IMG/VR virus record: IMGVR_UViG_3300017991_000072
Span: 35,865 to 99,864 of that record
Direction: 5' to 3' (one strand)
Length of the DNA stretch: 64,000 bases
Origin: a virus
Position 1 is the first letter of the stretch; each line of letters begins with the position of its first letter. Positions 4,050 to 20,173 of this stretch are shown here, piece after piece. The translations under genes were made by a program, and so were the position numbers. The notes under the pieces were generated by a model that made no database searches, was not told the origin of the DNA, and was given only the letters and a program-made list of their open reading frames with translations.

Positions 4050-4050
4050 A

Positions 4051-4098: not shown

Positions 4099-4137
4099 AC
4101 GGACACAGAAACCCCCAAACCCCAAGGAGGGAAACCC

Positions 4138-4377: not shown

Positions 4378-4382
4378 AAACA

Positions 4383-4468
4383 GACCCCCAGAGAAAAAAA
4401 TTCTCTGGGGGTCATTTTTTCTTCATTTTTCCCTTGACTTTTAGGAATGGGTGGTTTATAATAGGGTC
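4383..4468 (+). promoter_or_regulatory. Terminator-promoter cassette 5
   Basis: Hairpin 4383-4413; TTGACT 4434-4439, 17 nt, TATAAT 4457-4462. Confidence 0.9.
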
Positions 4469-4774
4469 ATGATGAACGAAGGAAACAAACCCCAAACCCC
4501 CAAGAAGGAGGAAACCATGAACCAGATGACAACGAAGAAGAACGCGGGAAGAGACATGGTCCGGAAGGTGAAGGCGGAACAGATGTCCTTTGTGACGGAG
4601 GACCAGTTGGCCGTTATCGCGGAGGACGATGAAACCAGGATGACCCCCATCCTTGTCCGCTGTGGGAATGGACGCTTCACGTGTCCCGCCCAGAACGCGG
4701 CCTGGTTCATTGACATCATCACCAAGGAAGGGACGGACTACGTCAGGGACGCCTCCATCTACTCCAGCTACTAG
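4469..4774 (+). CDS. Early hypothetical protein (SD-led ATG 4517)
   Basis: ORF plus SD. Confidence 0.75.
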   Translation: MMNEGNKPQTPKKEETMNQMTTKKNAGRDMVRKVKAEQMSFVTEDQLAVIAEDDETRMTPILVRCGNGRFTCPAQNAAWFIDIITKEGTDYVRDASIYSSY

Positions 4775-4788
4775 CCTGAACCCCTCCA

Positions 4789-4874
4789 GCCCCCCAGAGA
4801 AAAAAATTCTCTGGGGGGCCTTTTTTCTTCACTTTTCTCTTGACTTTCTTGACGGGGTGGGCTATAATAAGATC
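4789..4874 (+). promoter_or_regulatory. Terminator-promoter cassette 6
   Basis: Hairpin; TTGACT 4840-4845, 17 nt, TATAAT 4863-4868. Confidence 0.9.
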
Positions 4875-5327
4875 ATGGAAACAGCGAACAAACCCCAAAC
4901 CCCCAAACCCCAGGAGGACAGAATGTCAGTCACACAGTTCAGCGCGGAAGCCGTTTCCCAGATGGCCCACAGCATAGCCGCCCACGCCCGTCTTGATGAA
5001 GAGTTGGCGGAGATCATCCTGGAGTCCAAGGCGGCCCACCACGCTGGCCGCGTGGAGTTCAACCTGGACACGGATGACGTTTCCTTCAAGCTGGTCCACT
5101 ACATGAGGCTGTCCAACCTGGTGGCCTACTCCATCCAATACCAGGAGCCCATGGTTCCCGTCTACACCATTGATGACTACTACGGGGAACCCCTGGTGGC
5201 CAAGGAGCTGGCGGAGGAAATTGACCACTGGATCTACAACGTCCAGACCAACGCGGGGACCGCCCTGGTGGACCCGCTCTGGTTTGAACTGTTCCAGGCT
5301 GTCAGGGACCACCTGGCCGCGAAGTAG
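4875..5327 (+). CDS. Early hypothetical protein (SD-led ATG 4923)
   Basis: ORF plus SD. Confidence 0.75.
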   Translation: METANKPQTPKPQEDRMSVTQFSAEAVSQMAHSIAAHARLDEELAEIILESKAAHHAGRVEFNLDTDDVSFKLVHYMRLSNLVAYSIQYQEPMVPVYTIDDYYGEPLVAKELAEEIDHWIYNVQTNAGTALVDPLWFELFQAVRDHLAAK

Positions 5328-5340
5328 CCCACGGCCTCCA

Positions 5341-5426
5341 GACCCCCAGAGAAAAAAATTCTCTGGGGGTCATTTTTTCTTCATTTTTCTCTTGACTTTT
5401 CCCCGGGGATGGGTTACAATAAGATC
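5341..5426 (+). promoter_or_regulatory. Terminator-promoter cassette 7
   Basis: Hairpin 5341-5371; TTGACT 5392-5397, 17 nt, TACAAT 5415-5420. Confidence 0.9.
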
Positions 5427-5699
5427 ATGGAAACAGGAAATCAACCCCAAACCCCGAAGGAGCCCAAGATGAAGATGAACCCCAACGGATCAGTCAGTTT
5501 CAGCTATGAAGAGATCGTGGCGGCGGCGGAAGAGACCAAGAAGGCGGAAGCGGCCCGCGCCAACGCGCCCATGATGGCCGTCAGCTATGAAACCCCCGTA
5601 GGGACCTTCAAGGACTGGATCAAGGCGGCGGAGCGCGTGGAGGCTTTGGACATGGACCCCGTGGAGGTCATCAAGGTAGTCAGAACCCCTATCAGCTAA
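5427..5699 (+). CDS. Early hypothetical protein (SD-led ATG 5469)
   Basis: ORF plus SD. Confidence 0.75.
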   Translation: METGNQPQTPKEPKMKMNPNGSVSFSYEEIVAAAEETKKAEAARANAPMMAVSYETPVGTFKDWIKAAERVEALDMDPVEVIKVVRTPIS

Positions 5700-5766
5700 G
5701 GACAGGAACCACGCCCCCCCAGGATCCCCTGGGGGGCCAACCCCAACCCCAACGAAGGAGGACACG

Positions 5767-6165
5767 ATGAACAGACAAGCCAAGATCCCCCAGGAGATGG
5801 CCACCTACCTGGTGGACGCGGAGGACAAAGGCTGGACCGGTGGCCAGGTGACCAGGTGGGTCCGGAACTGGATGAAGGACCTAGTCTGGGATGACAAGGA
5901 CCCCCTGGGGGAGTCCGTGGCCGTGACCGTCCCCTGTTCCCTGGTGGACCAATACGGGAAGCTGATGGCCAAGGAGGACGAAGTCAGGACCTTGATGGAG
6001 ACCAGAGCCCAGACCCTTGGCCTGGTGTCCTGTGACCCCAGGTCTGAAGAGTACAGGGAGACCAGGAGGAAACACCTGAACCTAGTCAACGCCCTGGACA
6101 TGGTCAGGGAGTCCAGGAGGAACCTGGAAGACGCCATGACCTGGGTCCTGTTGGCCCAACTGTAG
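5767..6165 (+). CDS. Early hypothetical protein
   Basis: AAGGAGG SD. Confidence 0.7.
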   Translation: MNRQAKIPQEMATYLVDAEDKGWTGGQVTRWVRNWMKDLVWDDKDPLGESVAVTVPCSLVDQYGKLMAKEDEVRTLMETRAQTLGLVSCDPRSEEYRETRRKHLNLVNALDMVRESRRNLEDAMTWVLLAQL

Positions 6166-6216
6166 ACGAACCCAACGCGGCCCCCTGGGGAGACCTGGGG
6201 GGCCAAGGAGGACCCC

Positions 6217-6522
6217 ATGGAAGGACAAGAACCCAAGATGGTCTCCGTCATGGTGGCGGAGAAGCTTCTACAGGATTATGACACGGCCTTGATGGGAGCC
6301 AGGAACATGGAGGGACGCCTATTGAACGCTGAACAGTGTCTTCTCCAGTCCGTCCTGGACTGTGACCAGGAAGCCTATGAAGAGGCCCTGGCCCAGAGGG
6401 ACAGGGTCCAGGCTTCTCTGGACCTGGCCAAGAACCAGGCGGCGGCCCTGTCCGTCACGATAGCCAAGAAGGCCCTTCAAGACTGGATGACCCCAGGGAC
6501 TCCAGTCTTCCCAGAGGATTGA
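6217..6522 (+). CDS. Early hypothetical protein
   Basis: AAGGAGG SD. Confidence 0.7.
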   Translation: MEGQEPKMVSVMVAEKLLQDYDTALMGARNMEGRLLNAEQCLLQSVLDCDQEAYEEALAQRDRVQASLDLAKNQAAALSVTIAKKALQDWMTPGTPVFPED

Positions 6523-6583
6523 ACCACGGGTCCTCCCGTGGGTTTGGGGTGGGGCTCCCCCAGGGGTGGGGGAGCCCCTTTCT
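6522..6583 (+). terminator. Anti-leader element plus terminator (copy A, 3'UTR)
   Basis: GTCCTCCCGTGGGTTTGGGGT 6530-6550, then 12-bp stem with GGGG loop 6551-6578 and T tract. Confidence 0.75.
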
Positions 6584-6584
6584 A

Positions 6585-6613
6585 TTGACTTCAGGCGGAC
6601 CATGGTCTACACT
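6585..6613 (+). promoter_or_regulatory. Sigma70 promoter for a putative sRNA
   Basis: TTGACT 6585-6590, 17 nt, TACACT 6608-6613; no SD-led ORF downstream. Confidence 0.75.
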
Positions 6614-6619
6614 GAAGCC

Positions 6620-6702
6620 TGATCCACAGGGAACGGCGGGGCTTCCCCGTCCTCCTTGGGGTTTGGGGTAGGGGTCCAGGAGGGGTCCTGGACCCCTCTT
6701 TA
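6620..6702 (+). ncRNA. Putative ~80-nt sRNA antisense to the shared early-gene leader/SD (copy B)
   Basis: GTCCTCCTTGGGGTTTGGGGT 6649-6669 is the reverse complement of ACCCCAAACCCCAAGGAGGAC; 12-bp terminator stem 6670-6697. Confidence 0.65.
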
Positions 6703-6742
6703 TATTGTGGTTCTTCTTGAACAGCTCCCCCACATGTGGTAT
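6696..6742. promoter_or_regulatory. NrdR-box-like pair (32 bp apart)
   Basis: CTCTTTATATTGTGG at 6696 and CCCCACATGTGGTAT at 6728. Confidence 0.5.
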
Positions 6743-6843
6743 GGTGGAACCTGCTAGGGCTGACTTGGTGTCCGTACCAGCGCCGGGTCACTCTGTTTCC
6801 TCCTTTGGGCTCCCCACGCGCCACGGGGAGCCCTTCCCTTCTA

Positions 6844-6859
6844 TGTTCCACGTGAAACC
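6844..6859. promoter_or_regulatory. parS-like site
   Basis: TGTTCCACGTGAAACC, 15/16 match to TGTTNCACGTGAAACA. Confidence 0.65.
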
Positions 6860-7000
6860 CTGACTCCCTGGACCCCCGGGCCATGCTCCGGCCGGAGACC
6901 GTCCCGGATGTGGTATTCATCCACCACAACGTCAAGTCCCCACTTGACACGCCCCCCTTCCTCCTCCCCCCTGGTTATGCTCCCCCCAGGAAATCCGGGA

Positions 7001-7047
7001 CACCACATGTGGTATACCCACGGCCACGGACCCCCTACATTTTGTGG
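7001..7047. promoter_or_regulatory. NrdR-box-like pair (32 bp apart)
   Basis: CACCACATGTGGTAT at 7001 and CCCTACATTTTGTGG at 7033. Confidence 0.55.
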
Positions 7048-7079
7048 TGTCATATAGCGAATTTTTCTACACTGAACCC

Positions 7080-7109
7080 TTGACAACAGGGGGTCCCCTG
7101 GTGTATATT
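7080..7109 (+). promoter_or_regulatory. Promoter 8
   Basis: TTGACA 7080-7085, 18 nt, TATATT 7104-7109. Confidence 0.75.
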
Positions 7110-7126
7110 AGGGGTAGATAGTGAGA

Positions 7127-7552
7127 ATGAAACGGACCCCAGAACCCCAAACCAAGGAGGACAGGATGAACGCAAGAACCAACGATGACTTCAGGAAGGA
7201 AGGAACCAGGAAGGCCACGCTGGCGTTCCTTTCCGCCCTGACAGAACAGGAGGAAAGCGGAGAACCCCCGGCCATGTTCATGATCTGTCAACAGAAGAAC
7301 CCCATCACGGGACGGAGGAATGAAGTCAGGTTGACGGCCGGTGTTCAGGCCATGGGAGCCATAGCGGCCGGTCACGTCCTGAAAGCCGTTCATGACTTTG
7401 ACACCTTCACAGAGGATAATGACCCCTACGGGGAACATGACTTTGGGATCGTCAGGATGGAAGGGGAAACCCTGAACTGGAAGATTGATGACTACCAGGG
7501 CTATGATGGGATTGAATTGGTCCTGACCATCATGACGGCCATGGAATACTAG
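7127..7552 (+). CDS. DUF3768-family protein (SD-led ATG 7166)
   Basis: FDTFTEDNDPYGEHDFG...WKIDDY...VLTIMTAMEY signature. Confidence 0.8.
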   Translation: MKRTPEPQTKEDRMNARTNDDFRKEGTRKATLAFLSALTEQEESGEPPAMFMICQQKNPITGRRNEVRLTAGVQAMGAIAAGHVLKAVHDFDTFTEDNDPYGEHDFGIVRMEGETLNWKIDDYQGYDGIELVLTIMTAMEY

Positions 7553-7613
7553 AAACCCCAGGGAGCCCGGCCACGGCCGGGCTCCCACCACCCCCCAAAC
7601 CAAGGAGGACAGA

Positions 7614-7877
7614 ATGGACCCCATCACGAACCCAAGACCCACCACCCACCAATGGAAGGAAGGGGACAGGGTAGCCTTTTCTAAAGCCTTCCTCCGCAAC
7701 ACTGGCCAGTGTGACTATGAAACGGCCAGAGGCCGGGGGACCATCATCAGCGTGGCCCCCGTGGGGGACCTGACCATAGCGTCTATCAGATGGGACGGGA
7801 TAGGTCTGGTCACTAACGTCAACGTGTTGAACCTGTCCCTGGTCACCAGGGACGGGGTAGTTCAGGACAGGGACTAG
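7614..7877 (+). CDS. Small early protein (possible SH3-like fold)
   Basis: SD; WKEGDRVAF...GTIISV...IRW. Confidence 0.65.
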   Translation: MDPITNPRPTTHQWKEGDRVAFSKAFLRNTGQCDYETARGRGTIISVAPVGDLTIASIRWDGIGLVTNVNVLNLSLVTRDGVVQDRD

Positions 7878-7937
7878 GAAGTCACCAGGGAGCCCTGGCG
7901 CTGGCCGGGGCTCCCACCCCCACCCAAGGAGGACAGG

Positions 7938-8177
7938 ATGGATCTGGAACGCTACAGGGTCTTCACAGCCCAGAAATTCATGGCCATGACCACGGGGGAA
8001 CGCCAGAGGACAAAGCCCACCATGATGTTCAGCCGGGAATACCTGGCCCTGGCCCTGGCGCTGGCCTCTGAAAAGGTCATCATCTATGACGCCCAGGAAG
8101 ACCTGGCGTGGCATTGTGGGGACCTGGTCACGAAGGCGGGATGGTACGATGGGAGCGGACAGCTAGTCAACCCGTAG
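7938..8177 (+). CDS. Early hypothetical protein
   Basis: AAGGAGG SD. Confidence 0.65.
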   Translation: MDLERYRVFTAQKFMAMTTGERQRTKPTMMFSREYLALALALASEKVIIYDAQEDLAWHCGDLVTKAGWYDGSGQLVNP

Positions 8178-8351
8178 CCCTTCACCGGGGACCTGGTGAA
8201 GGGGTCCCCTTGGTTAGCCGGTCCCGGGGAAACCCGGGGCCGGTCTTTTTATGCTCCCCTCTGGCCCCGTCCCGGATTGTGGTATACTGTATCCACAATG
8301 TCAAGCCCTGGCTTGACGGGCCGTCTGCTAATCCACGAAAAGCCGGGACGG

Positions 8352-8395
8352 CCCCACATGTGGTAGGCCCCGTCCACCACCCCTATATTTTGTGG
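8352..8395. promoter_or_regulatory. NrdR-box-like pair (29 bp apart)
   Basis: CCCCACATGTGGTAG at 8352 and CCCTATATTTTGTGG at 8381. Confidence 0.5.
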
Positions 8396-8407
8396 TGTCC
8401 GTGGGCG

Positions 8408-8457
8408 TCTTTTTCTTCACTTTTCTCTTGACAAAAGGGGAACGCCGGGCGTATAAT
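8408..8457 (+). promoter_or_regulatory. Promoter cassette 9
   Basis: TTGACA 8428-8433, 18 nt, TATAAT 8452-8457; GCTGAAC-N5-GTTCAGC hairpin just after the TSS. Confidence 0.85.
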
Positions 8458-8518
8458 AGACCTGTAAGCTGAACAAAGGGTTCAGCGAAACCCCAACCCC
8501 CAACCAAGGGAGGACAGA

Positions 8519-8716
8519 ATGTTGGTAGCGTGTTACAAGACCAAGAAGGCTTTGAAGGAAGCCGTGGGACAGGCTCTTCTATATGAAGAGACTTCCTTGT
8601 TCGGGGAGGAATACCGCCCGGACGGGACGTTCCCAGTGGTAGGCCCCGGGGCCTATGAGCGTAAATGGTACGCGGAAGTTACCATGAAGGGAGGGAAGAT
8701 CCACAAGGTCAAGTAG
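8519..8716 (+). CDS. Small phage hypothetical protein
   Basis: SD; YKTKKALKEAVGQ.L.Y.ETSLFG.EY...KWYAEVTM. Confidence 0.75.
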   Translation: MLVACYKTKKALKEAVGQALLYEETSLFGEEYRPDGTFPVVGPGAYERKWYAEVTMKGGKIHKVK

Positions 8717-8775
8717 GAACCTGAACCGGCCCGGGGCTCCGGCCCCGGGCCATTCTTCCAACCAAGGGAGGAACC

Positions 8776-9060
8776 ATGAACACACAAGAGACCCTAGAAT
8801 TCACTGGACACCAGATGGCCCGGGCCAATACGGTCCTGTCAAGCCTTGACGGAGCTGGCCCTATGTCCGTCTGTAAAGCCGCCGCCGTGGCCCAGAAGGC
8901 CAACCAAATAGCGGAAAGCCTACCAGCCCTTGACAAGCTGGCCGGACACCTTGAAAGCCATCCTGATGACCCCGTGGCCCTTCTGGCCGTTCAAGCCTAT
9001 ACCGTGGCCGTGGGCGTCCACCTTGACCTTCTGGAACTGACCCTTCAAATGACCCTATAG
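8776..9060 (+). CDS. Early hypothetical protein
   Basis: GGAGG SD. Confidence 0.65.
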   Translation: MNTQETLEFTGHQMARANTVLSSLDGAGPMSVCKAAAVAQKANQIAESLPALDKLAGHLESHPDDPVALLAVQAYTVAVGVHLDLLELTLQMTL

Positions 9061-9324
9061 CCTCCCCCCAGGGGGGAGGAATTCCCCCTTGGTTGGCCCC
9101 GGTCCCTTCTGGGACCGGGGCCTTTCTTTTGTCAACCCCAGACTTGACATAGTGGTGTGCAAATGTCATTTTCCGTCCCGGACGTTGACCGTTTCCCAGG
9201 GCTCCCAGAGCGGAGCGGAGCGGAGCGGGTCCCCGTAGGGGACCACGGCCCCCGTCCCATCCGGGACGGGGGCCGGGAACCGCATAGAGAGAAGAGACCG
9301 GAACCGGACCCGGCCGGACCCACC

Positions 9325-9396
9325 TGAAAAAAAATTCGCGGGAGGACGTTTTTTCTTCACTTTTCCCTTGACTTTCGTTCTGGGATGGTTTAGAAT
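9325..9396 (+). promoter_or_regulatory. Promoter cassette 10
   Basis: TTGACT 9368-9373, 17 nt, TAGAAT 9391-9396. Confidence 0.85.
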
Positions 9397-9405
9397 AGGG
9401 GTGTA

Positions 9406-10362
9406 ATGAGGAAACGAAACACACCCCAAACCCCGAAGGAGGCCAAGATGGCAACACAGAGCGGACAGGACAAGGTTTTCCAGATCTTCACAGACCAGAT
9501 CATGGACATGTTGGAAGAGGGGACGGTCCCCTGGCGTCAACCTTGGAAGGGCGGGAAGATCCCCATGTCCTTCCAGACCAAGCGGCCCTACCGTGGGATG
9601 AACGTCTGGTTCCTGAACAGCGTGGCCATTCATCGCGGCTACACATCCAACTGGTGGGTGTCCCTGAAGTCAGTGAAGAAGGCCAAGGGCTGGATCAAGG
9701 ACGATGAATTCAAGAAGTCAGTGACCGTGATCTTCTGTAGGCCCAAGCGGTACGAAGTGGAGACGGACGAAGTGGACGAACAGGGCCAGCCGGTCAAGGA
9801 AGAGCGGATGTCCTTCATCTACTTCTACCACACGGTATGGAACATGGACCAGGTGGAAGGGATGACGGCCCCTGACGCGGACCAGGACGCGGAGGAGCGG
9901 ACCCCCAACCAGATCCTTGAAGAGGCCCAGGCCATCATTGACGGCTACCAGAACGGCCCAGAGATCAGCCACGGCGGGACCAGGGCTTTCTATCGTCCCT
10001 CTGATGACTCCGTGACGGTCCCAGAGATGGAACTGTTCCAGGACAGCGAGAACTACTACCACGTGATGTATCATGAACTGGCACACTCCACGGGTCACGG
10101 TTCCCGCCTTGGGCGGAAGGGAGTCATGGACCTGACCATGTTTGGATCCCATGACTACTCCAAGGAGGAACTGGTGGCGGAGATGGGAGCGGGCTTCCTG
10201 GGAGCCCTGGTGGGACTGACCCCCAGGACCATTGACAACACGGCGGCCTACATCCAGTCCTGGCTGAAGGCCCTGAACGATGACAAGCGGCTCCTGGTCT
10301 ACGCGGCCAGCAAAGGCCAGGCGGCGGCGGAACACATCCTGGGCGTGACCTGGGAAGGATAA
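9406..10362 (+). CDS. ardC: ArdC-family antirestriction ssDNA-binding/zincin protein (SD-led ATG 9448)
   Basis: GTVPWRQPW, PYRGMN, AFYRPSDD, HELAHSTGH..RL.R, YSKEELVAE, AAYIQSWL motifs. Confidence 0.92.
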   Translation: MRKRNTPQTPKEAKMATQSGQDKVFQIFTDQIMDMLEEGTVPWRQPWKGGKIPMSFQTKRPYRGMNVWFLNSVAIHRGYTSNWWVSLKSVKKAKGWIKDDEFKKSVTVIFCRPKRYEVETDEVDEQGQPVKEERMSFIYFYHTVWNMDQVEGMTAPDADQDAEERTPNQILEEAQAIIDGYQNGPEISHGGTRAFYRPSDDSVTVPEMELFQDSENYYHVMYHELAHSTGHGSRLGRKGVMDLTMFGSHDYSKEELVAEMGAGFLGALVGLTPRTIDNTAAYIQSWLKALNDDKRLLVYAASKGQAAAEHILGVTWEG

Positions 10363-10437
10363 CAGGGAGGAAGCCTGGGAGTCCCACAGTGGGGCTCCCA
10401 GGCCCTTCAAACCCCAAACCAGAAGGAGGACAGAACG

Positions 10438-10911
10438 ATGGAACAGACAGACTACACAGCGGACAGAGAACTGGCGGTCAAGGCCCTGGAACAGATGGAC
10501 TACATCCACCTGGAACGCGGACAGGTGGCGGCCCTGGTGGACACCTACCGGGTCATCACCACCCATAACCCTGGCGCGGTCCCAGGCCATGAAGAGGAAC
10601 TAGGGACCCTGGCCGGGCTCCTGGTCATGAGCGTAGGAACTGGCGTCAAGCTGATCCCAGAGGACGGACCCCCCAACGTCCGGGTGGGAGTCCCCAGGCT
10701 CCTGGTGGAAGCCATCAAGGACATCAACATCCAGAGGGACAAACTGGCGGCCTACAAGGAGGAACACAAGGACGGAGGAGGACCAATAGACCCCAAGTCC
10801 ATGGAAGTCCTGGAGGCCCAACAGGCTACCCACAGGGCGGCCCTTTCCACGGCCCTGGTCAACGTCATCATCACGGACTTGGCTGGAATGGCGGACGCTG
10901 GAAGCTACTAG
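10438..10911 (+). CDS. Early hypothetical protein
   Basis: Shared leader plus SD. Confidence 0.7.
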   Translation: MEQTDYTADRELAVKALEQMDYIHLERGQVAALVDTYRVITTHNPGAVPGHEEELGTLAGLLVMSVGTGVKLIPEDGPPNVRVGVPRLLVEAIKDINIQRDKLAAYKEEHKDGGGPIDPKSMEVLEAQQATHRAALSTALVNVIITDLAGMADAGSY

Positions 10912-11052
10912 ACTGACCCTCCCCCACAGAGCCCCGGCCCGGTTCGTCCGGTCCGGGGCTCTTCTTTTATGCGGGCCGGGACTAGCGTCCCGGATATACG
11001 CCATTTCCCACGGTCCCCATCACGTGGTAGACTATGGATGAAAGGAGATCCC

Positions 11053-11355
11053 ATGACCTACACTCTATCCCAGGCGGGGACGGCCTACGCTGAAGCGGCG
11101 GCCACGTGGGCCAGGGCTATGGAAGCGGAGGAGGCGGTCAGACAAGAAGGCCCTGACCTGAAGGTTGACAAGTTCCTCCACGTGACGGCCTTGTCCACAG
11201 TGATCCGCCAGGCTATGAACGGCCTGTCCCAGGCTGTCATGATCTTCATCTGGCGAAACAACGAAGGGAACCACGCGGTCCTGGAAGCGGCCATGGCGGA
11301 GACTATCCGCGTGACGGCGGACGCCAACGCCCTTATGGACTCCTACGGATACTGA
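11053..11355 (+). CDS. Early hypothetical protein
   Basis: AAGGAG SD; upstream TAGACT -10 at 11028-11033. Confidence 0.65.
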   Translation: MTYTLSQAGTAYAEAAATWARAMEAEEAVRQEGPDLKVDKFLHVTALSTVIRQAMNGLSQAVMIFIWRNNEGNHAVLEAAMAETIRVTADANALMDSYGY

Positions 11356-11503
11356 ACCCCCTGGACCCCTGGGCCACCAATGACTGTTTATTAACCCTGA
11401 ACTGTCATTCTGTTGTTACCGGTTATCAGGCCCAGGGGTCTTTTCTTTCCCCCACGCGGGCGCGGGCGGGCGCGTGGGCGCGTATACGCGGGCGCGGGGC
11501 TCC

Positions 11504-11581
11504 TGAAAAAAGTTCTCCCAGGGCGTTTTTTTCTTCACTTTTCTCTTGACATCCGTGGACGGGTCCCCTATAATAAGGACC
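11504..11581 (+). promoter_or_regulatory. Promoter cassette 11
   Basis: TTGACA 11546-11551, 17 nt, TATAAT 11569-11574. Confidence 0.9.
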
Positions 11582-11965
11582 ATGGACACAGCGACAAACC
11601 CCAAACCCCAAACCACGGAGGACAACATGTCCACACTGAACGCCCTTGGAACCCTTCTCTACAGCCTCCCCGTTCCCACCCGTCACGCCTACACCATCAC
11701 CATCTGTGACCAATACCAGGACACAGAGCCTACCACCTGTGTGGTCAACGCGGAGACCCAGGGCGCGGCCCTGGCCAAGGCTGTGGAGGTCTACTCCACA
11801 GAATTCTACGGCCACGCGGTCACCCTGGACCCCCAGGTCCTTCATGACGCTGTCACCGTCATCTTCCATCCTGACGGCGGCGTGAACCCCGTGGGGTTCT
11901 TCGCCAGTGACCCCCAACCCATCCGCCTTCAGCGCCTTGGGGACCCTGTCCCCTTGTCCGCGTAA
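11582..11965 (+). CDS. Early hypothetical protein (SD-led ATG 11627)
   Basis: ORF plus SD. Confidence 0.7.
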   Translation: MDTATNPKPQTTEDNMSTLNALGTLLYSLPVPTRHAYTITICDQYQDTEPTTCVVNAETQGAALAKAVEVYSTEFYGHAVTLDPQVLHDAVTVIFHPDGGVNPVGFFASDPQPIRLQRLGDPVPLSA

Positions 11966-12031
11966 GCGGACCCCCTGGGGGGTGGGAATTCTCCCACCCC
12001 CCGGCTGGAACCCCAAACCCAGGAGGACATC

Positions 12032-12232
12032 ATGGACCAAGTCAAGAAGAGCCTGACCAAGAAAGCCCTGAAGGCCAAGCTGAACCAAGCCAGGGAAGAG
12101 CTGACCTACCTGGAGGACTTCCTGGCGGGACCCTGTTGTGTGTCCCACGCGGAGATTGACGCGGCCGGGGATGACACCTACAGGCTTCAGAAGGAGATCA
12201 GGGAGCTGAAGGAGGCCCTGGCGGCCCTGTGA
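12032..12232 (+). CDS. Small coiled-coil early protein
   Basis: Shared leader plus SD. Confidence 0.7.
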   Translation: MDQVKKSLTKKALKAKLNQAREELTYLEDFLAGPCCVSHAEIDAAGDDTYRLQKEIRELKEALAAL

Positions 12233-12253
12233 TCTTTTTTTCGTCAGGCGGCG

Positions 12254-12307
12254 TTTTTTCTTCACTTTTCTCTTGACAAAGCCTGAAGGATGGTTTACAC
12301 TTACACC
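12254..12307 (+). promoter_or_regulatory. Promoter cassette 12
   Basis: TTGACA 12273-12278, 17 nt, TACACT 12296-12301. Confidence 0.85.
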
Positions 12308-12955
12308 ATGGACACAGACCGCAAACCCCAGACCCAGGAGGACACGATGAACGAAGATCACATCACCCAAGAGGCCACGCGGCGGCTGGAAGCCCTTCAC
12401 CCCTACCTGACCAGGGAGATCAAGCTGGCTCCCCCGTCTCCCCCAGAGAAGACGGCTGAAGAGTACAGGGAAGAAGCGGCCCGTCACGCGGCGGAGCGCC
12501 TACGGTCCCAACAGGAGTCAGACACGGACGGGTTCCTGTCCCAGTGGGCCAGCGGCCTGAACAGTTCCCTGGCGTCCAGGCGGGCGGAGATCAAGGAGAA
12601 CGGCGGGAACTGGGAGTTCTGGGGACTCTACCGTAGGGCGGACGGGAAGCGGATCAGGGCCAAGATGATAGACGGGAAGTATGGCCTCTGTTGGGCCATC
12701 TGTGACGAACATTCCACCTTCACGGGTCAGTTCTTCTCCGTGGACGGGACGGGCTCCAAGAGGACCAAGCTGTGGAAGGCTGGCCTGGAAGAGCGGCGTG
12801 AAATGGCCCCGGCTTGGGCCAAGATGGACGGGAAGGGAACGGGCCTGTCAGGTCAGGCTTGGGTGTCCACCTACAGGATAGACGGCGGCTACCCCTTGGA
12901 CGCGGTCAACCTGGACTCCCCCGTGGAGGACCCTGACCCCACGCCGGACCCATAG
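12308..12955 (+). CDS. Early hypothetical protein (SD-led ATG 12347)
   Basis: ORF plus SD; SDTDGFLSQWA motif. Confidence 0.75.
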   Translation: MDTDRKPQTQEDTMNEDHITQEATRRLEALHPYLTREIKLAPPSPPEKTAEEYREEAARHAAERLRSQQESDTDGFLSQWASGLNSSLASRRAEIKENGGNWEFWGLYRRADGKRIRAKMIDGKYGLCWAICDEHSTFTGQFFSVDGTGSKRTKLWKAGLEERREMAPAWAKMDGKGTGLSGQAWVSTYRIDGGYPLDAVNLDSPVEDPDPTPDP

Positions 12956-13177
12956 CCTTCCCCCAAGAAGGCCAAGAGGACGGAAGCGGAACTACGGCGG
13001 GACCTTTCCGCCATCATGAGGGGTCACAGAGTATGTCAGGACTGTGGCCAGGTCAGGCCCACGGCTGAAGTCCACGTCCCTGGACGTGGGATGGCTAGGG
13101 TCTGTCAGGACTGCTATGACGTGGCTGTCTATGAACTGACGGCCTAACCCCAACCCCCAGGACAGGAGGAAGGAACG

Positions 13178-14479
13178 ATGGACAAGGAGAAGATCAAGGA
13201 GCTGTGTGACAAGGTGGAACACCTGACTGAATGGGCTGAAATAGGCGCGGCCTGGACAAGGGACCAGGCCACGTCAGAGTCCACGGAGAAGGACGCCAGG
13301 GTCAACCTGGAACTGGCCCACCAGGAGGAGAAGGAACTGTTGGACTTCCTGACGGGCCTGATCAAGGAGGAGGACACCAGGTCCCCGGAGATGGTGTCCC
13401 TGGATTGGATGTTTGACGCGGCGGAGGAACACCTTCTGGACGAAGACGGAGAAGTCACCTGTGAAGTGGAGGAACTACGGACCCACTACCAGGTAGTCCT
13501 GAACAACTTGAAGGAGCTGGCCCTTCTTCGTGAACGCTACCAGTCCTTGAAGATCAGGGCCTTCTCCGCCATGTATGGAACCTTCATTCCCGCCAGGGAG
13601 GACGGGCTGAACCACTACTTCCAGTCCATCACGGCGGAGCGGGAGGCCAAGGAAATGACGGAGGCCCTGGACGCCCTGGAACACCTGAACAAGGAGGCCA
13701 GGGAAGGGAACATAGCTGTCTACGATGGGGAAGAGAACTGTGAAGCCCTTCTTCAGGACATCAAGGACGCCTACAGGATCCTGTGGGACTTCATCACGGG
13801 CTCCAACACCAGGAACATTCAGAACCTTCCCAGGACGGTCACAGGACGGTTCACGGACTCCCCCAATTTCCAGGAGGTCCCCAAGACGGAGTCCACGGCG
13901 CGGCCCATCGTGAAGGCCCCTGGTCCCTCCCCCTACGCCCAGATCTTCCAGGTCATTGGGAACGTGGTTCCCCAGGAAGCGGCGGAAGCTGTGGACCTGG
14001 CCATCCGTCAGTATGACGGATCCTTCAGCGGGACTCCCCTGAAGGACCTAGTGATGAAGACCTGGGGAGCCCTGGACGGGGACGCCAGGATGGCCCATGA
14101 CAGGCTGTCAGGCCACATCCAGACCAGCGCGGACCCAGACATCAGGGAGGACAGGCTGAAGGACCTGGTGACCCTGGTGGGCTCCCTGAACGCTGAAGAG
14201 AAGGCCAGCTACTCCGTGGCTGTGGACATGTTCCTGAAGGCCAGGATCATCTCCACGTTTGAACGGGCCTTTGACATCAACCATACGGAAGCGGCGGAGA
14301 TCTTTGACAGGGTCCAGGACGGGGAGCCCTTGGAGGCCATCCTGGTGGACATCCTGACCGTGGCGGAACGCCATGACCCCAACCAGTTCAGGGCGGGGAT
14401 CTTGGCCATCCTGAAGAAGGGACATGGGATCTCCAACGCCCAGAACAAGATTGGGGGTGATCCCAGTGATAAAGAGTGA
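13178..14479 (+). CDS. Large helical hypothetical protein
   Basis: 433-aa ORF, SD. Confidence 0.75.
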   Translation: MDKEKIKELCDKVEHLTEWAEIGAAWTRDQATSESTEKDARVNLELAHQEEKELLDFLTGLIKEEDTRSPEMVSLDWMFDAAEEHLLDEDGEVTCEVEELRTHYQVVLNNLKELALLRERYQSLKIRAFSAMYGTFIPAREDGLNHYFQSITAEREAKEMTEALDALEHLNKEAREGNIAVYDGEENCEALLQDIKDAYRILWDFITGSNTRNIQNLPRTVTGRFTDSPNFQEVPKTESTARPIVKAPGPSPYAQIFQVIGNVVPQEAAEAVDLAIRQYDGSFSGTPLKDLVMKTWGALDGDARMAHDRLSGHIQTSADPDIREDRLKDLVTLVGSLNAEEKASYSVAVDMFLKARIISTFERAFDINHTEAAEIFDRVQDGEPLEAILVDILTVAERHDPNQFRAGILAILKKGHGISNAQNKIGGDPSDKE

Positions 14480-15398
14480 CATCCTGGACATGGTGGACAA
14501 GATGGTCCAGGCGGGCCAGCTACACACGGAAGTCCTGGAGGCCCTGGGACACCTGGCGGACGAACACACGGACCACATCCTGAAGGAGAAGCTGGACCAC
14601 CAGGCGGCGGAACACGCCCGGCGCTGTGACCAGTTTGTTGACCAGATCGTTCAGACAGATCAGCGGTTCATGGACTTCCTGAAGATGGCCTACGCCATGG
14701 ACGCGGACACGGCCAAGGAGACCCTGAAGCTGATCAAGCGGGGACTGTTCCCAAGCCAGATCCTACGGGACGCCCTGTCTGAAGGAGAACGCCAGAAGGC
14801 GGCCCTGGAACACGCGGGCCTGGGGGACGCCATGAAGGCGGCCGGGGATGTCTTCAGGGAGCTGGAAAGTGAGAAGCCCAAGCTGAAGGTCACCCTTCCT
14901 GACGGGTCCACGCGGGAGTCCGTCCCAGACAAACCCTGGGACCCTGACGGCTCCAGGCCAAACCACCAGCCCAAGTCTCCGTTCCCTCTGGTGGTGGATG
15001 TCAAGGTGGACCCAGAGAACGAAGAACACAGGGACTATGTGATGGGCCTGATCTGTGAACATCTCCCTGACGGCCAGCTACAGGTCAGATGTGACCTGGA
15101 CCCGGACACGGAGGACCTGGCCTTCATCTGGAGGATTGAATGGTCCTTCCAGGAGAAGCGGACGGACGGGGAGATCCCTGTGACCCGTGGCGTGGCCCTG
15201 GAAATAGGCCACAAGGAAGGGACCCTGGTCAAGGATCTCCCTGGGGTAGCCATGGGACTGGCCAGGACCCTGAAGGCCAAGAGGAAGCGGGCCTATGGAG
15301 ACATAGAAGCCCCCTGTCTGGAATGTGAAGGAGCCTACGCGGACGGAAACCCATGTCAAGACTGTGACGAAGGAGAAGGAAATGGCCATCAAGGATAG
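14466..15398 (+). CDS. Hypothetical protein with C-terminal CxxC...CxxC
   Basis: ORF; start uncertain (GTG 14466 or ATG 14490). Confidence 0.7.
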   Translation: MIKSDILDMVDKMVQAGQLHTEVLEALGHLADEHTDHILKEKLDHQAAEHARRCDQFVDQIVQTDQRFMDFLKMAYAMDADTAKETLKLIKRGLFPSQILRDALSEGERQKAALEHAGLGDAMKAAGDVFRELESEKPKLKVTLPDGSTRESVPDKPWDPDGSRPNHQPKSPFPLVVDVKVDPENEEHRDYVMGLICEHLPDGQLQVRCDLDPDTEDLAFIWRIEWSFQEKRTDGEIPVTRGVALEIGHKEGTLVKDLPGVAMGLARTLKAKRKRAYGDIEAPCLECEGAYADGNPCQDCDEGEGNGHQG

Positions 15399-15606
15399 AG
15401 GAGAACTGGAAGAGCGCGGGATTGAAATTGATCTGTCAGGTCCCCAGGGGAACGGGTTTGTCCTGATTGGGTACGCCAGGAAATGGGCCAAACAGTTGGG
15501 GAAGGACGCGGACGCCATCACCAAGGACATGGAGTCAGGAGACTATGACCACCTGGTTGAAGTCCTGGAACGGGAGTTTGGGGACTACGTCACCATCTAC
15601 AGGTAG
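15382..15606 (+). CDS. Small phage hypothetical protein
   Basis: IEIDLSGPQGNGFVLIG...MESGDYDHLVEV...FGDYV. Confidence 0.75.
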   Translation: MAIKDRGELEERGIEIDLSGPQGNGFVLIGYARKWAKQLGKDADAITKDMESGDYDHLVEVLEREFGDYVTIYR

Positions 15607-15615
15607 GAGCCCAAG

Positions 15616-15825
15616 ATGAAACACATCAGACTGGGAAGACCCCAGGTCTTCAACGTCCAGACAGGTGACGAAAGATGCTACTTCTGTGACAAGCCACCCA
15701 CGGGGGCCTGTAGGAGCTGTGGAGCCCACGTCTGTGACGATCATGACGAACACCAGGGACAGGACGGGAAGCCCTGTCCCACGGGGAGCGTCCACGGAGC
15801 CCCGAAGGAGGACGCTGATGGCTAA
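15616..15825 (+). CDS. Small Zn-finger protein
   Basis: CYFC...CRSC...VCDDH. Confidence 0.65.
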   Translation: MKHIRLGRPQVFNVQTGDERCYFCDKPPTGACRSCGAHVCDDHDEHQGQDGKPCPTGSVHGAPKEDADG

Positions 15826-16246
15826 GTTCACACGGCCACGGATCCATTGGGAGAAGTCAGGGGTGGAAGTGTGCTACTTTTGCCTGACTGAACTACCTGA
15901 ACACGTCTGTCCACGATGTAGAGCCCACGTGTGTGACCTACACTGGAAGAAGCGGCCCAAGATGTGTTCCCAGTGTCACCTTGGACACTACCCTGACCAA
16001 TACACCAAGGAAAGGCTTCTGAAGAACCTGGACACCCTGGTGGCGGTCACGGCCAAGACGTGGGCGGAACAGACCCCCAACTGGCAAACCATACAGAGGA
16101 AGGAACGGATCACGGATGTCAGGCTGATGGGGGAGGCCATCCGCCACTACATCCTGTCAAGTGAAAAATGTTCCCAGGAAGAGGCCCAGAAGCCCCCAGA
16201 AGAAGAGCGGAGCGGGGGAAGGATACTACGGAGCCCGAAGAACTGA
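15818..16246 (+). CDS. Zn-finger protein
   Basis: CYFC...CPRC..HVCDLH...CSQC; GGAGG SD. Confidence 0.7.
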   Translation: MAKFTRPRIHWEKSGVEVCYFCLTELPEHVCPRCRAHVCDLHWKKRPKMCSQCHLGHYPDQYTKERLLKNLDTLVAVTAKTWAEQTPNWQTIQRKERITDVRLMGEAIRHYILSSEKCSQEEAQKPPEEERSGGRILRSPKN

Positions 16247-16261
16247 AGAGTCTACATGAAG

Positions 16262-16324
16262 CCCACAGGTCCTCCTGTGGGGTTTGGGGTGGGGAGCCCG
16301 GAGGGGTCCGGGCTCCCCTTTTCT
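16262..16324 (+). terminator. Anti-leader element plus terminator (copy C, 3'UTR)
   Basis: GTCCTCCTGTGGGGTTTGGGGT 16269-16290; 12-bp stem with GGGG loop 16291-16318; T tract. Confidence 0.75.
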
Positions 16325-16439
16325 ATGGGGGCGGGGGTCTTGACGCTGGTGGCGTGAAGTGGATAGGCTGTCAACATTGGCGGGAAGACTGGGCCTGGCG
16401 GGGACATACTACCTGTGGGGGGTAGTGAAGGAGGACAGG

Positions 16440-16850
16440 ATGAAGAAGATCCTGACTCTGGCCCTGTTGGCTGTCTTGGTGTGGAGCCTTGGCGGCTGTT
16501 CAACCATTGGCCAGGCTATGGTCCAGAAGAGCATGAACGGCGCGGAGATAGCCAAAGCCTACTATGACCAAGGGAAGGACGGGAGGACCTACAACCCCGT
16601 CATCCTGGAGGCGGCGGAAGGGGAAACCATGTCCATCACCATCAACGGGTTGGCCAAGGTGGCCCTGACTACGCCACATGAACCCCTTAGCGTATACCCA
16701 AGGGATCCTTCCACCCTGGGCCAACTGTTGGACGGTCTGTGGAAGATAGGGACCGTCATTGGGTCCACCATCGTAGGGGAGAAGATGGTGGAAGGTCTGT
16801 CACGCGGGCCTACCATCGTGGAGCCCAAGGTGGTCACCGTCCCCAGATAG
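16440..16850 (+). CDS. Lipoprotein
   Basis: MKKILTLALLAVLVWSLGGC lipobox; AAGGAGG SD. Confidence 0.75.
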   Translation: MKKILTLALLAVLVWSLGGCSTIGQAMVQKSMNGAEIAKAYYDQGKDGRTYNPVILEAAEGETMSITINGLAKVALTTPHEPLSVYPRDPSTLGQLLDGLWKIGTVIGSTIVGEKMVEGLSRGPTIVEPKVVTVPR

Positions 16851-17110
16851 AAAAGAGGAGCCCCTGGGGACATGTGCGAAACCCCAGGGACTCTACCATG
16901 GCTGGCGTGATGGGAAAAGAAATGGAGCCTCATGTCAGAGCCCCTAAAGAAACCCATCACAGGACCTATGATACGCGGCCCCTGGGGCTCCTGTCAAGAG
17001 AAAAATGTTCCCTGTGTTTCTTCCTGGGGACCCCCGGGCGCGGCGTAGCCAGGCGAACAGGCCAACGGGGGTCCAGACCCCCGTGGTCTACGTCTGTTCC
17101 TACCGTGCTA

Positions 17111-18808
17111 CTACTCCCAGAACGATTGAAGGTCAACTTCATCCTGTGGCTCCTGTTCCTGTGGGGTAGCTGTCTTCAGATCCGTCAGCCCATCGTTCCC
17201 ATCACTACCGTCCGTCAAGTCTTCATTGTCAAGTGAAGAATGTTCTTGGTCACCTTGGTCACTCACCAGTCCTCCAGAGGTCATTTCAGAGCCAGCGCCA
17301 AGATGTGAACGGTATGAGTCTTCGTGAAGTCTCCGTGAAGCCTCCTGGGGAGACATCCCTGGAAGGACTGACATGGAAGGTAGGAGGCCCCGCTTGGCCT
17401 TCTCTATCAGGACGGCCACCTGGCCGGTCCCATCTGATAGGGTCAGGCTCCTCTTGACTTCCCCGCTGTCAGGGTCCAACAATTTCACCAGGTCCTTCAG
17501 CCTTTTGTGGACTTCCCCTACTAGAATGTCTGTTCTCTCTTCTGGAACCCCAGTGATAGCCTCCCTCAATAGGGCTTCTTCTATCCTGGCCAGATCCTTG
17601 GTAGCCAGGCCAGCCATGGCGGCCAGGGCGTCAAGGTGTGAGCCTATGACATGTCTGTCCAGTAGCCCCTGGTGTTTACAGTCATGGCCCTGGTCATAGT
17701 CTGGACACTTCCCCTTCAGAGGACACCTGTCACAGGTACGCTTCACAGCCCCACCAAATAGGCCACCCTCCAGTTGGATAGGCCCCATCTGTGTCCCTGG
17801 TGACCCACAGGTTCCGATAATATCAGTTATGTTAACTTTTCCAGGGACCCCTGACCCCACAGGGACCCCTTCCTGACCCCCTTCTGTCAAGGTCCCACAT
17901 GACAGGGGGTCCCCAGGAGCCCCCTGGCTATGCTCTTCTCCATCTCCGTCCCGGATCTCGCTTATATCTAGCCCATTCGTCAAGTTATTACTTGACAAAG
18001 TCTCCTTCACAACATCTTGTGGCGCTCCATCTTGTGGTACATTCCCTTGTGGTACTACATCTTGTGGCCCTAGATCTTGTGGCCCCTCTGCTAATCGTCG
18101 AAGATCCGGGACGGGAGAATGCGGCGGGACAGGAGAAACAGCCCCAATATCTTGTAGCACTACATCTTGTGGTACTACATCTGGCCCCCTACCGCTTGTA
18201 CCACTAGATCTTGTACTACTAGATGTGGTGGCGTCCAGAAAACGCTCCAAGAGGGACCGGCGGACAGGAGGCCCTTGGGGTTCTTCCTTATTGACCCCTG
18301 TTTTCACCTGGGGTCCTTCCTCTGTAGGGTCCAATGTATCCCTGGCTTTCCCCTTTGTATTCTGGGGAACTTCCTTCTCTGTGTTCTGTTCTTCCGCTTT
18401 GGCTGACCCTCCACCCCGCGCCCTGGGTTTCCCCGTTCCCTGTTCTTGTCTGGACTCCAGTTCCTCCATCCCCTTCTTGGCTCTGTCCAATGGATCGTCT
18501 GACTGGTCTTCCTTGTAGCCTGTCAGGGCCTTCATCATAGCTGTAGCCATGTCTGGACCCTTGGCTGGACCCTTCCCCGCCGCCTGGGGTTCCCCCTTCT
18601 CCGCCTTCTGACCCTGTACTGTGGGGACCTTCAGGAGCCTCTTCTTCTTGGCTCCCCCCTTTGTCCGCCGTGAAGTCCCATTTTCTGGGGTCTTTCCGCT
18701 GAAATCTTCGTTTTTGGGTGGGGGTGTTTCCGCTTTCAGCTTTCTTTTCTTGACAACAGGGGGTTCCCCACGCCCTGTCTTTTCCGCTGAATTCCGCTTC
18801 TTGGCCAT
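17111..18808 (-). CDS. Large low-complexity protein with a C-terminal Cys4 motif; contains the 15-bp DNA array
   Basis: GGAGG SD before ATG 18808; CDRC..KCPDY..GHDC. Confidence 0.6.
   Translation of the reverse strand: MAKKRNSAEKTGRGEPPVVKKRKLKAETPPPKNEDFSGKTPENGTSRRTKGGAKKKRLLKVPTVQGQKAEKGEPQAAGKGPAKGPDMATAMMKALTGYKEDQSDDPLDRAKKGMEELESRQEQGTGKPRARGGGSAKAEEQNTEKEVPQNTKGKARDTLDPTEEGPQVKTGVNKEEPQGPPVRRSLLERFLDATTSSSTRSSGTSGRGPDVVPQDVVLQDIGAVSPVPPHSPVPDLRRLAEGPQDLGPQDVVPQGNVPQDGAPQDVVKETLSSNNLTNGLDISEIRDGDGEEHSQGAPGDPLSCGTLTEGGQEGVPVGSGVPGKVNITDIIGTCGSPGTQMGPIQLEGGLFGGAVKRTCDRCPLKGKCPDYDQGHDCKHQGLLDRHVIGSHLDALAAMAGLATKDLARIEEALLREAITGVPEERTDILVGEVHKRLKDLVKLLDPDSGEVKRSLTLSDGTGQVAVLIEKAKRGLLPSMSVLPGMSPQEASRRLHEDSYRSHLGAGSEMTSGGLVSDQGDQEHSSLDNEDLTDGSDGNDGLTDLKTATPQEQEPQDEVDLQSFWE
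18008..18231. repeat. Tandem 15-bp array of NrdR-box-like units (5+6 copies)
   Basis: Units such as CACAACATCTTGTGG, TACTACATCTTGTGG, CCCTAGATCTTGTGG, CACTACATCTTGTGG at 18008-18082 and 18143-18231. Confidence 0.8.
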
Positions 18809-18964
18809 GGTGGCCTCCTTCCTTGACATTCAGTGAAGAGCCCCTTCTGGAGCCCGCGCCGTTTCTTGACTACCCCTCCATCATAGACCAAAAAAGAAGG
18901 GCTGACCAGGGGAGGACAGGAGCCCCCAGTCAGCCCATGGACGGACCAGACAGGAATTGGTCCG

Positions 18965-19423
18965 CTATATGTTCAGGGTCCCTCCTTCAACCTTTTCTCC
19001 GGCGTCAATCATGGACTCCACGCCAAGGTTCAGGTCCTCCACGTCAAAGGGCTCCACCTTCTCCAAGGCGCTTTCTGGGATGGCCAGGTTTTCCTTGTGG
19101 GACAGGATGTAGACCTTCCCGTCATTATGGGTTCTGAAGGCCAGACAAGGGACGAAGGCCGCCCCCATGGGATCAGTCATGAAATGGATGACCCCATAGT
19201 AGGAAACCCGCCGTCCAGTCTCCTTCTCCCAGGAGCGTAGGAACTCCGCCGCCAGTTCCGTCACTGTGGCCGCGTCTTCATAGAAGCCGCCCAGTTCGTG
19301 GTCTGGATTGTTGTTCTTCGCCATTCTACGTCCAAAACACAGGTCAGGTTCAAGGCCGCCGAAGAAGGCTACCTTGACTTTCAGAGCGTACAAATACAGG
19401 GTCTTGATCATCATGTTCTCCAA
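18965..19423 (-). CDS. Hypothetical protein
   Basis: ORF track. Confidence 0.6.
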   Translation of the reverse strand: MENMMIKTLYLYALKVKVAFFGGLEPDLCFGRRMAKNNNPDHELGGFYEDAATVTELAAEFLRSWEKETGRRVSYYGVIHFMTDPMGAAFVPCLAFRTHNDGKVYILSHKENLAIPESALEKVEPFDVEDLNLGVESMIDAGEKVEGGTLNI

Positions 19424-19903
19424 TTCAGGTTCCAGGTTTCAGTTCTTGGTCACAGTCCGCCGTGTGTCAACTCCTCCTTCCGCCAAACATCCAGACCAAG
19501 AACTGGGTGATCAGGGCCGTGAAGGCCACCATCAGGACCGCTTGTAGCCTCCAATCCATCCCTGACTCCTTCCTAGTCATCCTTCCTTGGTTTCGCCTTC
19601 GCTTCCTCCGGTCCTTCTTCTCTCCAGCGCCGCCACCATGTTCTGATCATGTCCAGGGCCAGGAGGACCAGGATGATGATCTTGATGATGATGGCCAGGA
19701 GAAGGTTCTTCACTGATCCAGCCCCTTGAACTTGGTGGGGGAGATCTCCAGGTCCAATTCTTCAGGGCTCTGTTCGTTCTTGGTGACCAGGATGGCCTCC
19801 AGGGCCTTCAGCCGTTCTTCATGATCGGAGATGACCTCTTCCGCCTTGGTCAGCCTGGCCACGTATTCCTTGGCCTTTTCCATCAAGGCCGCCTTCACTC
19901 CGT

Positions 19904-20173
19904 TCAACATGTCAGTCCCCTCTGTTCCGCTATGGCCTCCAGGACCATGATGGCGTCTTTGGCCGTCTGGGCCGGGGCTCTGTTGATGGGGGCCAGGAGG
20001 ACGGACACAGACGCCCTTTTCACGGAGGGGTTCCCTTTGGGGGTCTTCCACCCGCTGATGGTGACGTAGATCTTGGGGACCTTCGTCTTGGGTGGGTCCA
20101 ATTCGTGGAACTCCACCCTGTCATCCCCAAAATGGTCCATGATCCTGTTCTTGAAGATCCCTAGCCTGTCCAT
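19904..20173 (-). CDS. Hypothetical protein
   Basis: ORF track. Confidence 0.6.
   Translation of the reverse strand: MDRLGIFKNRIMDHFGDDRVEFHELDPPKTKVPKIYVTISGWKTPKGNPSVKRASVSVLLAPINRAPAQTAKDAIMVLEAIAEQRGLTC

Follow-up and report, generated by a model that had tools for sequence, protein, structure and literature searches.

Tandem NrdR-box-like repeats in a phage gene, best read as an amplified copy of an intergenic control-region module

NrdR is a near-universal bacterial sensor that links the supply of deoxynucleoside triphosphates (dNTPs) to the expression of ribonucleotide reductase (RNR), and the heaviest demand for dNTPs comes from phages. Clustered sites for a host regulator can lie apart from the genes that it controls, as exemplified by the Spo0A boxes of the phages phi29 and Nf and by datA, the titration locus for DnaA. 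Phage genes, too, can contain cis-acting sites for the very proteins that they encode, such as the lambda ori iterons in gene O and the pac sites in gene 3 of P22, gene 1 of SPP1 and pacA of P1. Here we describe two arrays of 15-bp repeats, array A (18007-18082) and array B (18142-18231), which lie within a gene for a 572-aa protein in the genome of an uncultured phage, the IMG/VR virus record IMGVR_UViG_3300017991_000072. The window to which all positions refer is the 64,000-nucleotide stretch formed by bases 35865-99864 of this 99,864-bp record. We present evidence that the element carrying the arrays is most readily understood as a control-region module copied into the gene and amplified there, the repeated part of the module being a NrdR-type box.

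The NrdR box is a 16-bp partial palindrome whose critical bases, C4 and G13, are eight bases apart; A6 and T11 matter as well, A8/T9 are usual, an AT content of at least 63% is needed between C4 and G13, and two such boxes stand 15-16 bp apart (PMC13584703). Spacers of 14-17 bp, or a second optimum of 24-27 bp, are tolerated, with a 14-bp spacer being 2-5-fold weaker in vitro (PMC12051234, Table 5). The repeats of the phage share with the bacterial operators (nrdAB, nrdHIEF and nrdDG of Escherichia coli; nrdAB and nrdRJ of Streptomyces coelicolor) the partly palindromic 16-bp box, the bases C4, A6, A8, T9, T11 and G13 and the AT-rich center, and pairs of boxes in its intergenic DNA have the canonical 16-bp spacer. 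In contrast to those operators, the sites of the arrays lie in coding sequence, at neither a nrd gene nor a recognizable promoter. They number eleven instead of two and are contiguous at a 15-bp period, so that the usual non-conserved linker is itself a box, and no two strong boxes of the arrays stand at the preferred spacing.

As repeated quasi-palindromic sites in a tolerant linker of a phage gene, the arrays are like lambda ori and the pac sites. Their arrangement as two repeat clusters flanking a spacer is that of P1 pac, and the protein encoded around them gives a weak signal of the small terminase subunit (TerS). Unlike the genes that carry lambda ori or pac, however, this one encodes no recognized initiator or terminase subunit; its boxes also occur at several intergenic places, and their motif matches the consensus of a host repressor. 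To the Spo0A boxes and datA the arrays can be likened as putative clusters of host-regulator sites that lie off the regulator's own regulon and sequester the regulator or read the state of the host, with the differences that the regulator would be NrdR and that the array is inside a gene. Literature searches gave no published case of an orphan NrdR-box array carried by a phage.

The repeat units and their likeness to NrdR boxes

With Tandem Repeats Finder, a repeat of period 15 is called at 18008-18083 (74% matches over 5.1 copies) and another at 18149-18221 (69% over 4.9 copies). Read as overlapping 16-bp boxes, the two arrays comprise five units in array A and six in array B, and all eleven unit starts proposed in an initial annotation of this DNA are correct, including the single 14-bp step from 18173 to 18187. 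The units were scored with a matrix built from the ten validated boxes of E. coli and S. coelicolor (Table 1 of PMC13584703); the leave-one-out scores of the validated boxes themselves are 8.7-18.0 bits. In order along the window, the units of array A score 16.0, 7.6, 0.1, 15.9 and 14.4 bits and those of array B 14.5, 16.8, 9.1, 6.5, 14.8 and 15.2 bits. Thus, seven units fall at 14.4-16.8 bits, one is at 9.1 bits and three are weak. C4, G13 and T11 are present in 11/11 units and A6, A8 and T9 each in 9/11. The eight units with all six conserved positions have an AT fraction of 62.5-87.5% from C4 to G13, versus the published lower limit of 63%, and the units are 12-13/16 identical to the validated boxes.

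At a threshold of 12 bits the genome contains 18 sites, against 2.0 expected in Markov-simulated genomes (maximum 5). Likewise, the six-position pattern has 20 matches in the window against an expectation of 9.2, with eight of them inside 18007-18231. The resemblance to NrdR boxes that the initial annotation had noticed is thus upheld, with matrix scores far above background and inside the range of the validated boxes; judged from the sequence, this likeness is real and quantitative. The consensus sites of Lrp, Fis, LexA and DnaA were also considered and rejected, none of them fitting the C-N8-G core.

The units are read by the gene in two ways, as had been proposed: most encode a peptide of the PQDVV type, and the last three encode TTSSS, TRSSG and TSGRG. 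Since the unit is a quasi-palindrome, these last three can just as well be taken for inverted copies (arms of 35 nt with 77% complementarity), and array B also admits a reading as an imperfect inverted repeat of 35 nt. A scan for sigma-70-type promoters, which does not cover other promoter types, found none inside the element, and an internal promoter served by the arrays was rejected on this basis.

A composite module shared with intergenic DNA and kept in relatives

Six of the 18 strong sites are located in early intergenic regions, mostly as pairs. One pair (6695-6742, boxes at 6695 and 6727) scores 10.3 and 14.2 bits and has a 16-bp spacer. A second with the same spacer (7000-7047, boxes at 7000 and 7032; 16.9 and 13.4 bits) lies about 33 nt upstream of the -35 element of a consensus plus-strand promoter at 7080-7109. 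The third (8351-8395, boxes at 8351 and 8380; 12.2 and 13.5 bits, 13-bp spacer) is placed between a minus-strand promoter-like site (8304-8276) and a consensus plus-strand promoter (8428-8457), again about 33 nt upstream of the -35 element of the latter. A single box of 12.0 bits is present at 1284-1299. Any pair at the canonical 16-bp spacer was seen in 1/300 simulated genomes, and the intergenic DNA of the phage has two. The position of these boxes beside early promoters suggests sensing or regulation as much as titration.

The arrays themselves belong to a larger unit, in that the segment 17929-18231 is a copy, of about 320 bp, of a composite module that recurs between the early genes. In the gene copy, the module begins with a bipartite motif TATGC-N14-GTCCCGGA (17929-17955), followed by an 18-bp palindrome GTCAAG-N6-CTTGAC (17979-17996), array A, a block with a complementary arm and array B. 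The palindrome stands 31 bp after GTCCCGGA, as it does in the intergenic copies, and is in the lowest-GC patch of the gene (41% GC, 17962-18041), beside array A. A perfect 13-bp inverted repeat has its left arm at 17946-17958, overlapping the bipartite motif, and its right arm at 18102-18114, between the arrays. These blocks are translated into the invariant IRDG (left arm) and PVPD (right arm) and the conserved LSSNN (palindrome) of the protein, and together with EEHSQ these few invariant residues of the linker are thus translations of shared module DNA. At 8250-8395 these blocks recur with their order and spacing unchanged, except that array A is absent and just two boxes are present, and there are partial copies at 1227, 3910, 6883, 9157 and 10969, the first beside the single box mentioned above. 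The best local match between gene and intergenic DNA joins 18081-18114 to 8318-8351 (34 nt, 82%, E=5e-4). The intergenic copies have one or two boxes beside early promoters, and in the gene copy their number would have been amplified to eleven.

Between the early cassettes the module occupies 1227-1299, 3905-3965, 6876-7050, 8250-8395, 9157-9290 and 10969-10995. It consists there of TATGC-N14-GTCCCGGA, often with the GTCAAG/CTTGAC palindrome 31 bp on, and then a complementary CCGGGAC arm; the arms at 9253-9270 and 10976-10994 are near enough for a short hairpin. In the copy at 8250-8320 the minus strand reads TTGACA-17-CACAAT, and from a reading of the module copies this promoter-like part appears degenerate in the gene.

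Four homologs of the 572-aa protein, with 48-91% identity, were found on metagenome contigs of hypersaline or sediment type, and their DNA (L002, L003, L004 and L005) was taken from one metagenome scan. Boxes are kept in all four (7, 5 and 4-5 boxes), down to 48% protein identity, and array B is conserved in 4/4. In L005 the boxes score 10.7-17 bits, though the surrounding linker is otherwise unalignable. Array A is inverted in the present phage relative to L002, L003, L004 and L005 and has expanded from 1-3 units to five: blastn aligns it on opposite strands only (22/22 and 33/37 nt), whereas its flanks align directly. The encoded peptide is therefore T-S-C/S-G (T-S-C-G-T) in the relatives, corresponding to the unit in the opposite orientation, versus P-Q-D-V-V here, and the DNA motif persists. 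The ortholog in L004 (1542-2381) is frameshifted just after the GTCAAG/CTTGAC block, which may be an assembly error or a real disruption.

Codon usage within the element is also unusual. The box-compatible codons CAA, GAT and GTA, which make up 19%, 22% and 7% of the respective choices in 59 other genes, account for 7/8, 10/12 and 6/12 in the element. The earlier suggestion that the constraint on the units acts on the DNA, made from the two reading frames, thus appears to be borne out, because the motif is present in non-coding copies of the module, array A is inverted relative to the relatives and rare codons are used; in particular, the boxes persist in the relatives despite the changed peptide of array A.

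These observations bear on a different explanation, in which the units are an ordinary coding pentapeptide repeat, expanded by slippage in a disordered linker, whose DNA has no function of its own and whose likeness to the NrdR box is a coincidence of a very large scan. The period is a multiple of three and keeps the frame open, the region is predicted to be unstructured and the copy number varies among the relatives, as slippage predicts. Yet non-coding DNA of this genome has the boxes again, with their flanking motifs in unchanged order and spacing, and canonical-spacer pairs are found in its intergenic regions. Many viral and cellular 15-bp coding repeats do meet the six-position pattern by chance. 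In an unrelated low-GC viral contig (L037:7139-7196), four perfect copies of a 15-bp repeat with 14/15 identity to the unit encode PQNVV; the protein is of the DUF5764 family and has another pentapeptide repeat beside this one, and hence such coding repeats can arise without NrdR. Moreover, the excess of identical codons at invariant positions is not significant (21/32 versus 106/201, p=0.19). A plain coding repeat nevertheless fits poorly with the rare codons of the units, with the boxes of L005 in their unalignable linker and with array A, where unrelated peptides in the phage and its relatives go with the same DNA unit. We consider this explanation quite improbable.

Still less do we favor the element acting as a secondary structure, either of the mRNA or as a DNA cruciform, with array B forming a long imperfect hairpin and the 13-bp inverted repeats closing a domain of about 170 nt that holds the GTCAAG/CTTGAC hairpin. 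Sense-strand RNA does give stable folds, with -40.5 kcal/mol for 18130-18240 (z=-3.2) and -64.3 kcal/mol for 17940-18120 (z=-4.8), but any array of quasi-palindromes folds well, and no Rfam family matches in 1-20000. Both changes that L005 shows in the long-range repeat would still allow G-U pairing in the sense strand; however, the same sequence loses the internal hairpin and keeps the boxes, there are no compensatory changes to count, and the inversion of array A alters which segments could pair. A structural role of this kind is highly unlikely.

Contiguous boxes in other phages and the role of host NrdR

When viral contigs were scanned for the six-position pattern occurring three times at a 15-bp period, at least 119 loci were obtained. 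Among the matches listed, most are low-scoring plain coding repeats, and about 26 are from marine phages of 35-38% GC with 3-4 contiguous, non-identical boxes of 15-20 bits (L146:9635-9680 in G001, L145:12886-12931 in G002 and about 24 further loci among L009-L123). The contiguous boxes of the marine phages are situated 0.4-1.7 kb upstream of the gene for the large terminase subunit (TerL). In two nearly complete marine genomes (37 and 39 kb, GC 35-36%) the array is non-coding and lies between a leftward gene for a P-loop-kinase-like (Zeta_toxin/AAA_33-like) protein and TerL. No genes for RNR, ATP-cone or NrdR zinc-ribbon proteins were found in the marine phages with contiguous boxes, and blastp detected no protein common to them and the present phage. 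A stricter pattern applied to 185,579 prokaryotic genomes (596 Gb) recovered 17 loci, all of them simple repeats of identical units scoring 7-13 bits. Since the prokaryotic genomes gave only simple repeats, contiguous high-scoring boxes look specific to phages in the collections scanned. A motif common to unrelated phages suggests a conserved host factor.

The present phage is likewise devoid of RNR genes: the absence of a nrd gene beside the arrays, which had been pointed out before, extends to the whole 99,864-bp genome. Genes for an ATP-cone protein, NrdR or the NrdR zinc ribbon were also not found in it, and a phage-encoded NrdR or zinc ribbon was rejected as the binder for this reason.

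On this evidence, the chance that host NrdR binds the phage boxes appears to us about even, and the phage probably soaks up or exploits host NrdR in one of two ways. The 15-bp units would be NrdR-box-type DNA sites placed in the part of the gene that encodes a disordered linker, where nearly every peptide is tolerated. Host NrdR, in its DNA-binding form loaded with dATP and ATP, would bind such boxes on incoming and replicating phage DNA, and the resulting sink would lower free NrdR and favor expression of the host RNRs, on which an RNR-less phage would depend. The intergenic pairs may instead couple the early control regions to the dNTP state. Given host NrdR as the binder, we favor the sink for the gene-internal array, most plausibly because it has no recognizable sigma-70-type promoter to control, and the sensor for the intergenic pairs. 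We infer both the identity of NrdR as the binding protein and the effect of its binding. Alternate units of the arrays are separated by a spacer of about 14 bp, at which binding in vitro is just 2-5-fold below the optimum, a point for NrdR (PMC12051234, Table 5). The NrdR proteins of E. coli and S. coelicolor each bind boxes of foreign origin.

Several considerations weigh against host NrdR or against a decoy, beginning with the geometry of the arrays. Their strong boxes are adjacent doublets 15 bp apart, and wherever two boxes have a spacer compatible with NrdR (13-14 bp), one of them is weak, at 7.6 or 9.1 bits; hence, the geometry is not that of a canonical operator. Strong boxes are otherwise paired at 28-29 bp, outside the tested optima, and the most distant relative, L005, is without any pair at a compatible spacer. 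The arrays are not at a nrd promoter, and the units, being duplicates of one another, do not give independent counts of pattern matches or of rare codons. To these are to be added the non-significant synonymous-site test and the PQNVV repeat of the unrelated virus discussed above. A scan of genome contigs with TerL gave no relatives from which a host, and its possession of NrdR, might be read. Finally, the NrdR regulon is already induced on infection by a pneumococcal phage (PMC6755750), and NrdR binds DNA only with dATP and ATP. Because DNA binding needs high dATP, the drain on dNTPs during infection should release NrdR in any case.

A stronger version of the NrdR proposal, which we regard as unlikely, is that contiguous boxes of 15-bp period are a phage-specific device. 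Several NrdR tetramers would sit on alternate faces of the helix, and the array would serve as a DNA-level anti-repressor that sponges up the dATP-loaded repressor and keeps the host RNRs on for RNR-less phages; it would have arisen independently in unrelated phages, in the present case within coding sequence. If binding by NrdR is true, it would constitute a takeover mechanism that needs no protein and would account for the supply of precursors to phages without RNR, or for the timing of their program to the dNTP pool. It would also provide a natural set of non-canonical NrdR site architectures, contiguous and of 15-bp period, for testing the tetramer model. The case further illustrates how a linker-coding sequence can, as it appears, be overprinted with regulatory DNA and be inverted in frame from one relative to another.

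The carrier gene, its possible own binding sites and the genome around it

The open reading frame (ORF) that carries the arrays (17111-18829, minus strand, 572 aa) is the last minus-strand gene before the point of convergence in the ORF list. The N-terminal half of its product is basic and of low complexity. A linker of poor conservation, which holds the element, comes next, and the C-terminal domain is conserved, with long helices after a Cys cluster. In this domain, 72/156 codons for invariant amino acids differ synonymously among the homologs, and thus the ORF is a real gene. The N-terminal half and linker are of low complexity, scarcely alignable among the homologs and predicted to be unstructured; an Atlas model with a mean pLDDT of 0.37 gave only sub-threshold structural leads. 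An AlphaFold2 model of the C-terminal domain predicts two long helices at low confidence (pLDDT 41).

Pfam gave no match for the 572-aa protein and nothing useful for its remote homologs, a profile search of PDB sequences with the C-terminal domain gave nothing, and no initiator family matched. A weak match to phrog_6902, 'terminase small subunit', was obtained with the whole protein (E=0.05) and with the C-terminal domain alone (E=0.0086). The remote homologs of this domain, from a full HMMER search, match several TerS families as well as phrog_887 (DpdA-like), the latter in its C-terminal part. The domain (17114-17839, minus strand) can be viewed as an unnamed family, the remote members of which are the C-terminal parts of phage DpdA-like proteins (phrog_887) and the phrog_6902 proteins.

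Alternatively, the units might be sites for a DNA-binding protein of the phage itself, with a role in packaging, replication or regulation. In its most specific form, the gene would encode a small terminase subunit with pac in its own sequence, the TerS-like 572-aa protein binding the two arrays that flank a spacer of about 60 bp. Other forms are an iteron origin inside a replication gene, as is lambda ori in O, or operators for a phage regulator. A helical hairpin is typical of TerS oligomerization cores, with which the two long helices of the low-confidence model would agree, and no other TerS was recognized in the phage, the small ORFs just upstream of TerL included. However, the likeness to TerS is weak, and a distance of 30 kb separates TerL from this gene, which closes the replication block. 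The spacer between the arrays bears an arm of the perfect 13-bp inverted repeat, and the AT-richer patch beside array A would also suit such a site; but DnaA boxes are not clustered at the element, GC skew tracks gene orientation and locates no origin, and the protein matches no initiator family. Adjacent doublets are better suited to a protein that binds neighboring sites cooperatively than to the NrdR tetramer, and the location of the contiguous boxes of the marine phages close upstream of TerL speaks for pac. A unique pac or ori nonetheless does not predict that intergenic control regions should have such boxes at no fewer than six further places, including two pairs with the exact NrdR spacer, and it would be an unlikely coincidence for two phage lineages without a common protein to arrive independently at the NrdR consensus. 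Overall, we regard binding by a phage-encoded protein as rather unlikely but as a serious alternative, and binding by host NrdR remains our preferred reading.

Genes for DNA polymerase, DnaB-like and other helicases and a methyltransferase are encoded on the minus strand of the record, and those for TerL, the portal and the tape-measure protein are farther along the same strand. Short early cassettes on the plus strand form a block at about 1300-16850, which fits the AT skew and the consensus promoters. No relatives of the phage were recovered by blastn against GenBank phages or in scans of viral contigs with the 572-aa protein and with its alignment.

Immediately downstream of the 572-aa ORF, the minus strand has a near-consensus promoter-like site at 16968-16997 (TTGACA-18-TATCAT, 11/12). 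Directed into the last early gene of the plus strand at its 3' end, this site could yield an antisense transcript. Two adjoining early ORFs on the plus strand (15616-16246) each have a CxxC...CxxC...C..H cluster of similar layout and possibly encode small zinc-binding proteins; neither matches the NrdR zinc-ribbon model. Another early ORF of the plus strand (9406-10362, 318 aa) has an HExxH motif and is presumably, from inspection of its sequence only, similar to ArdC-type antirestriction or zincin proteins.

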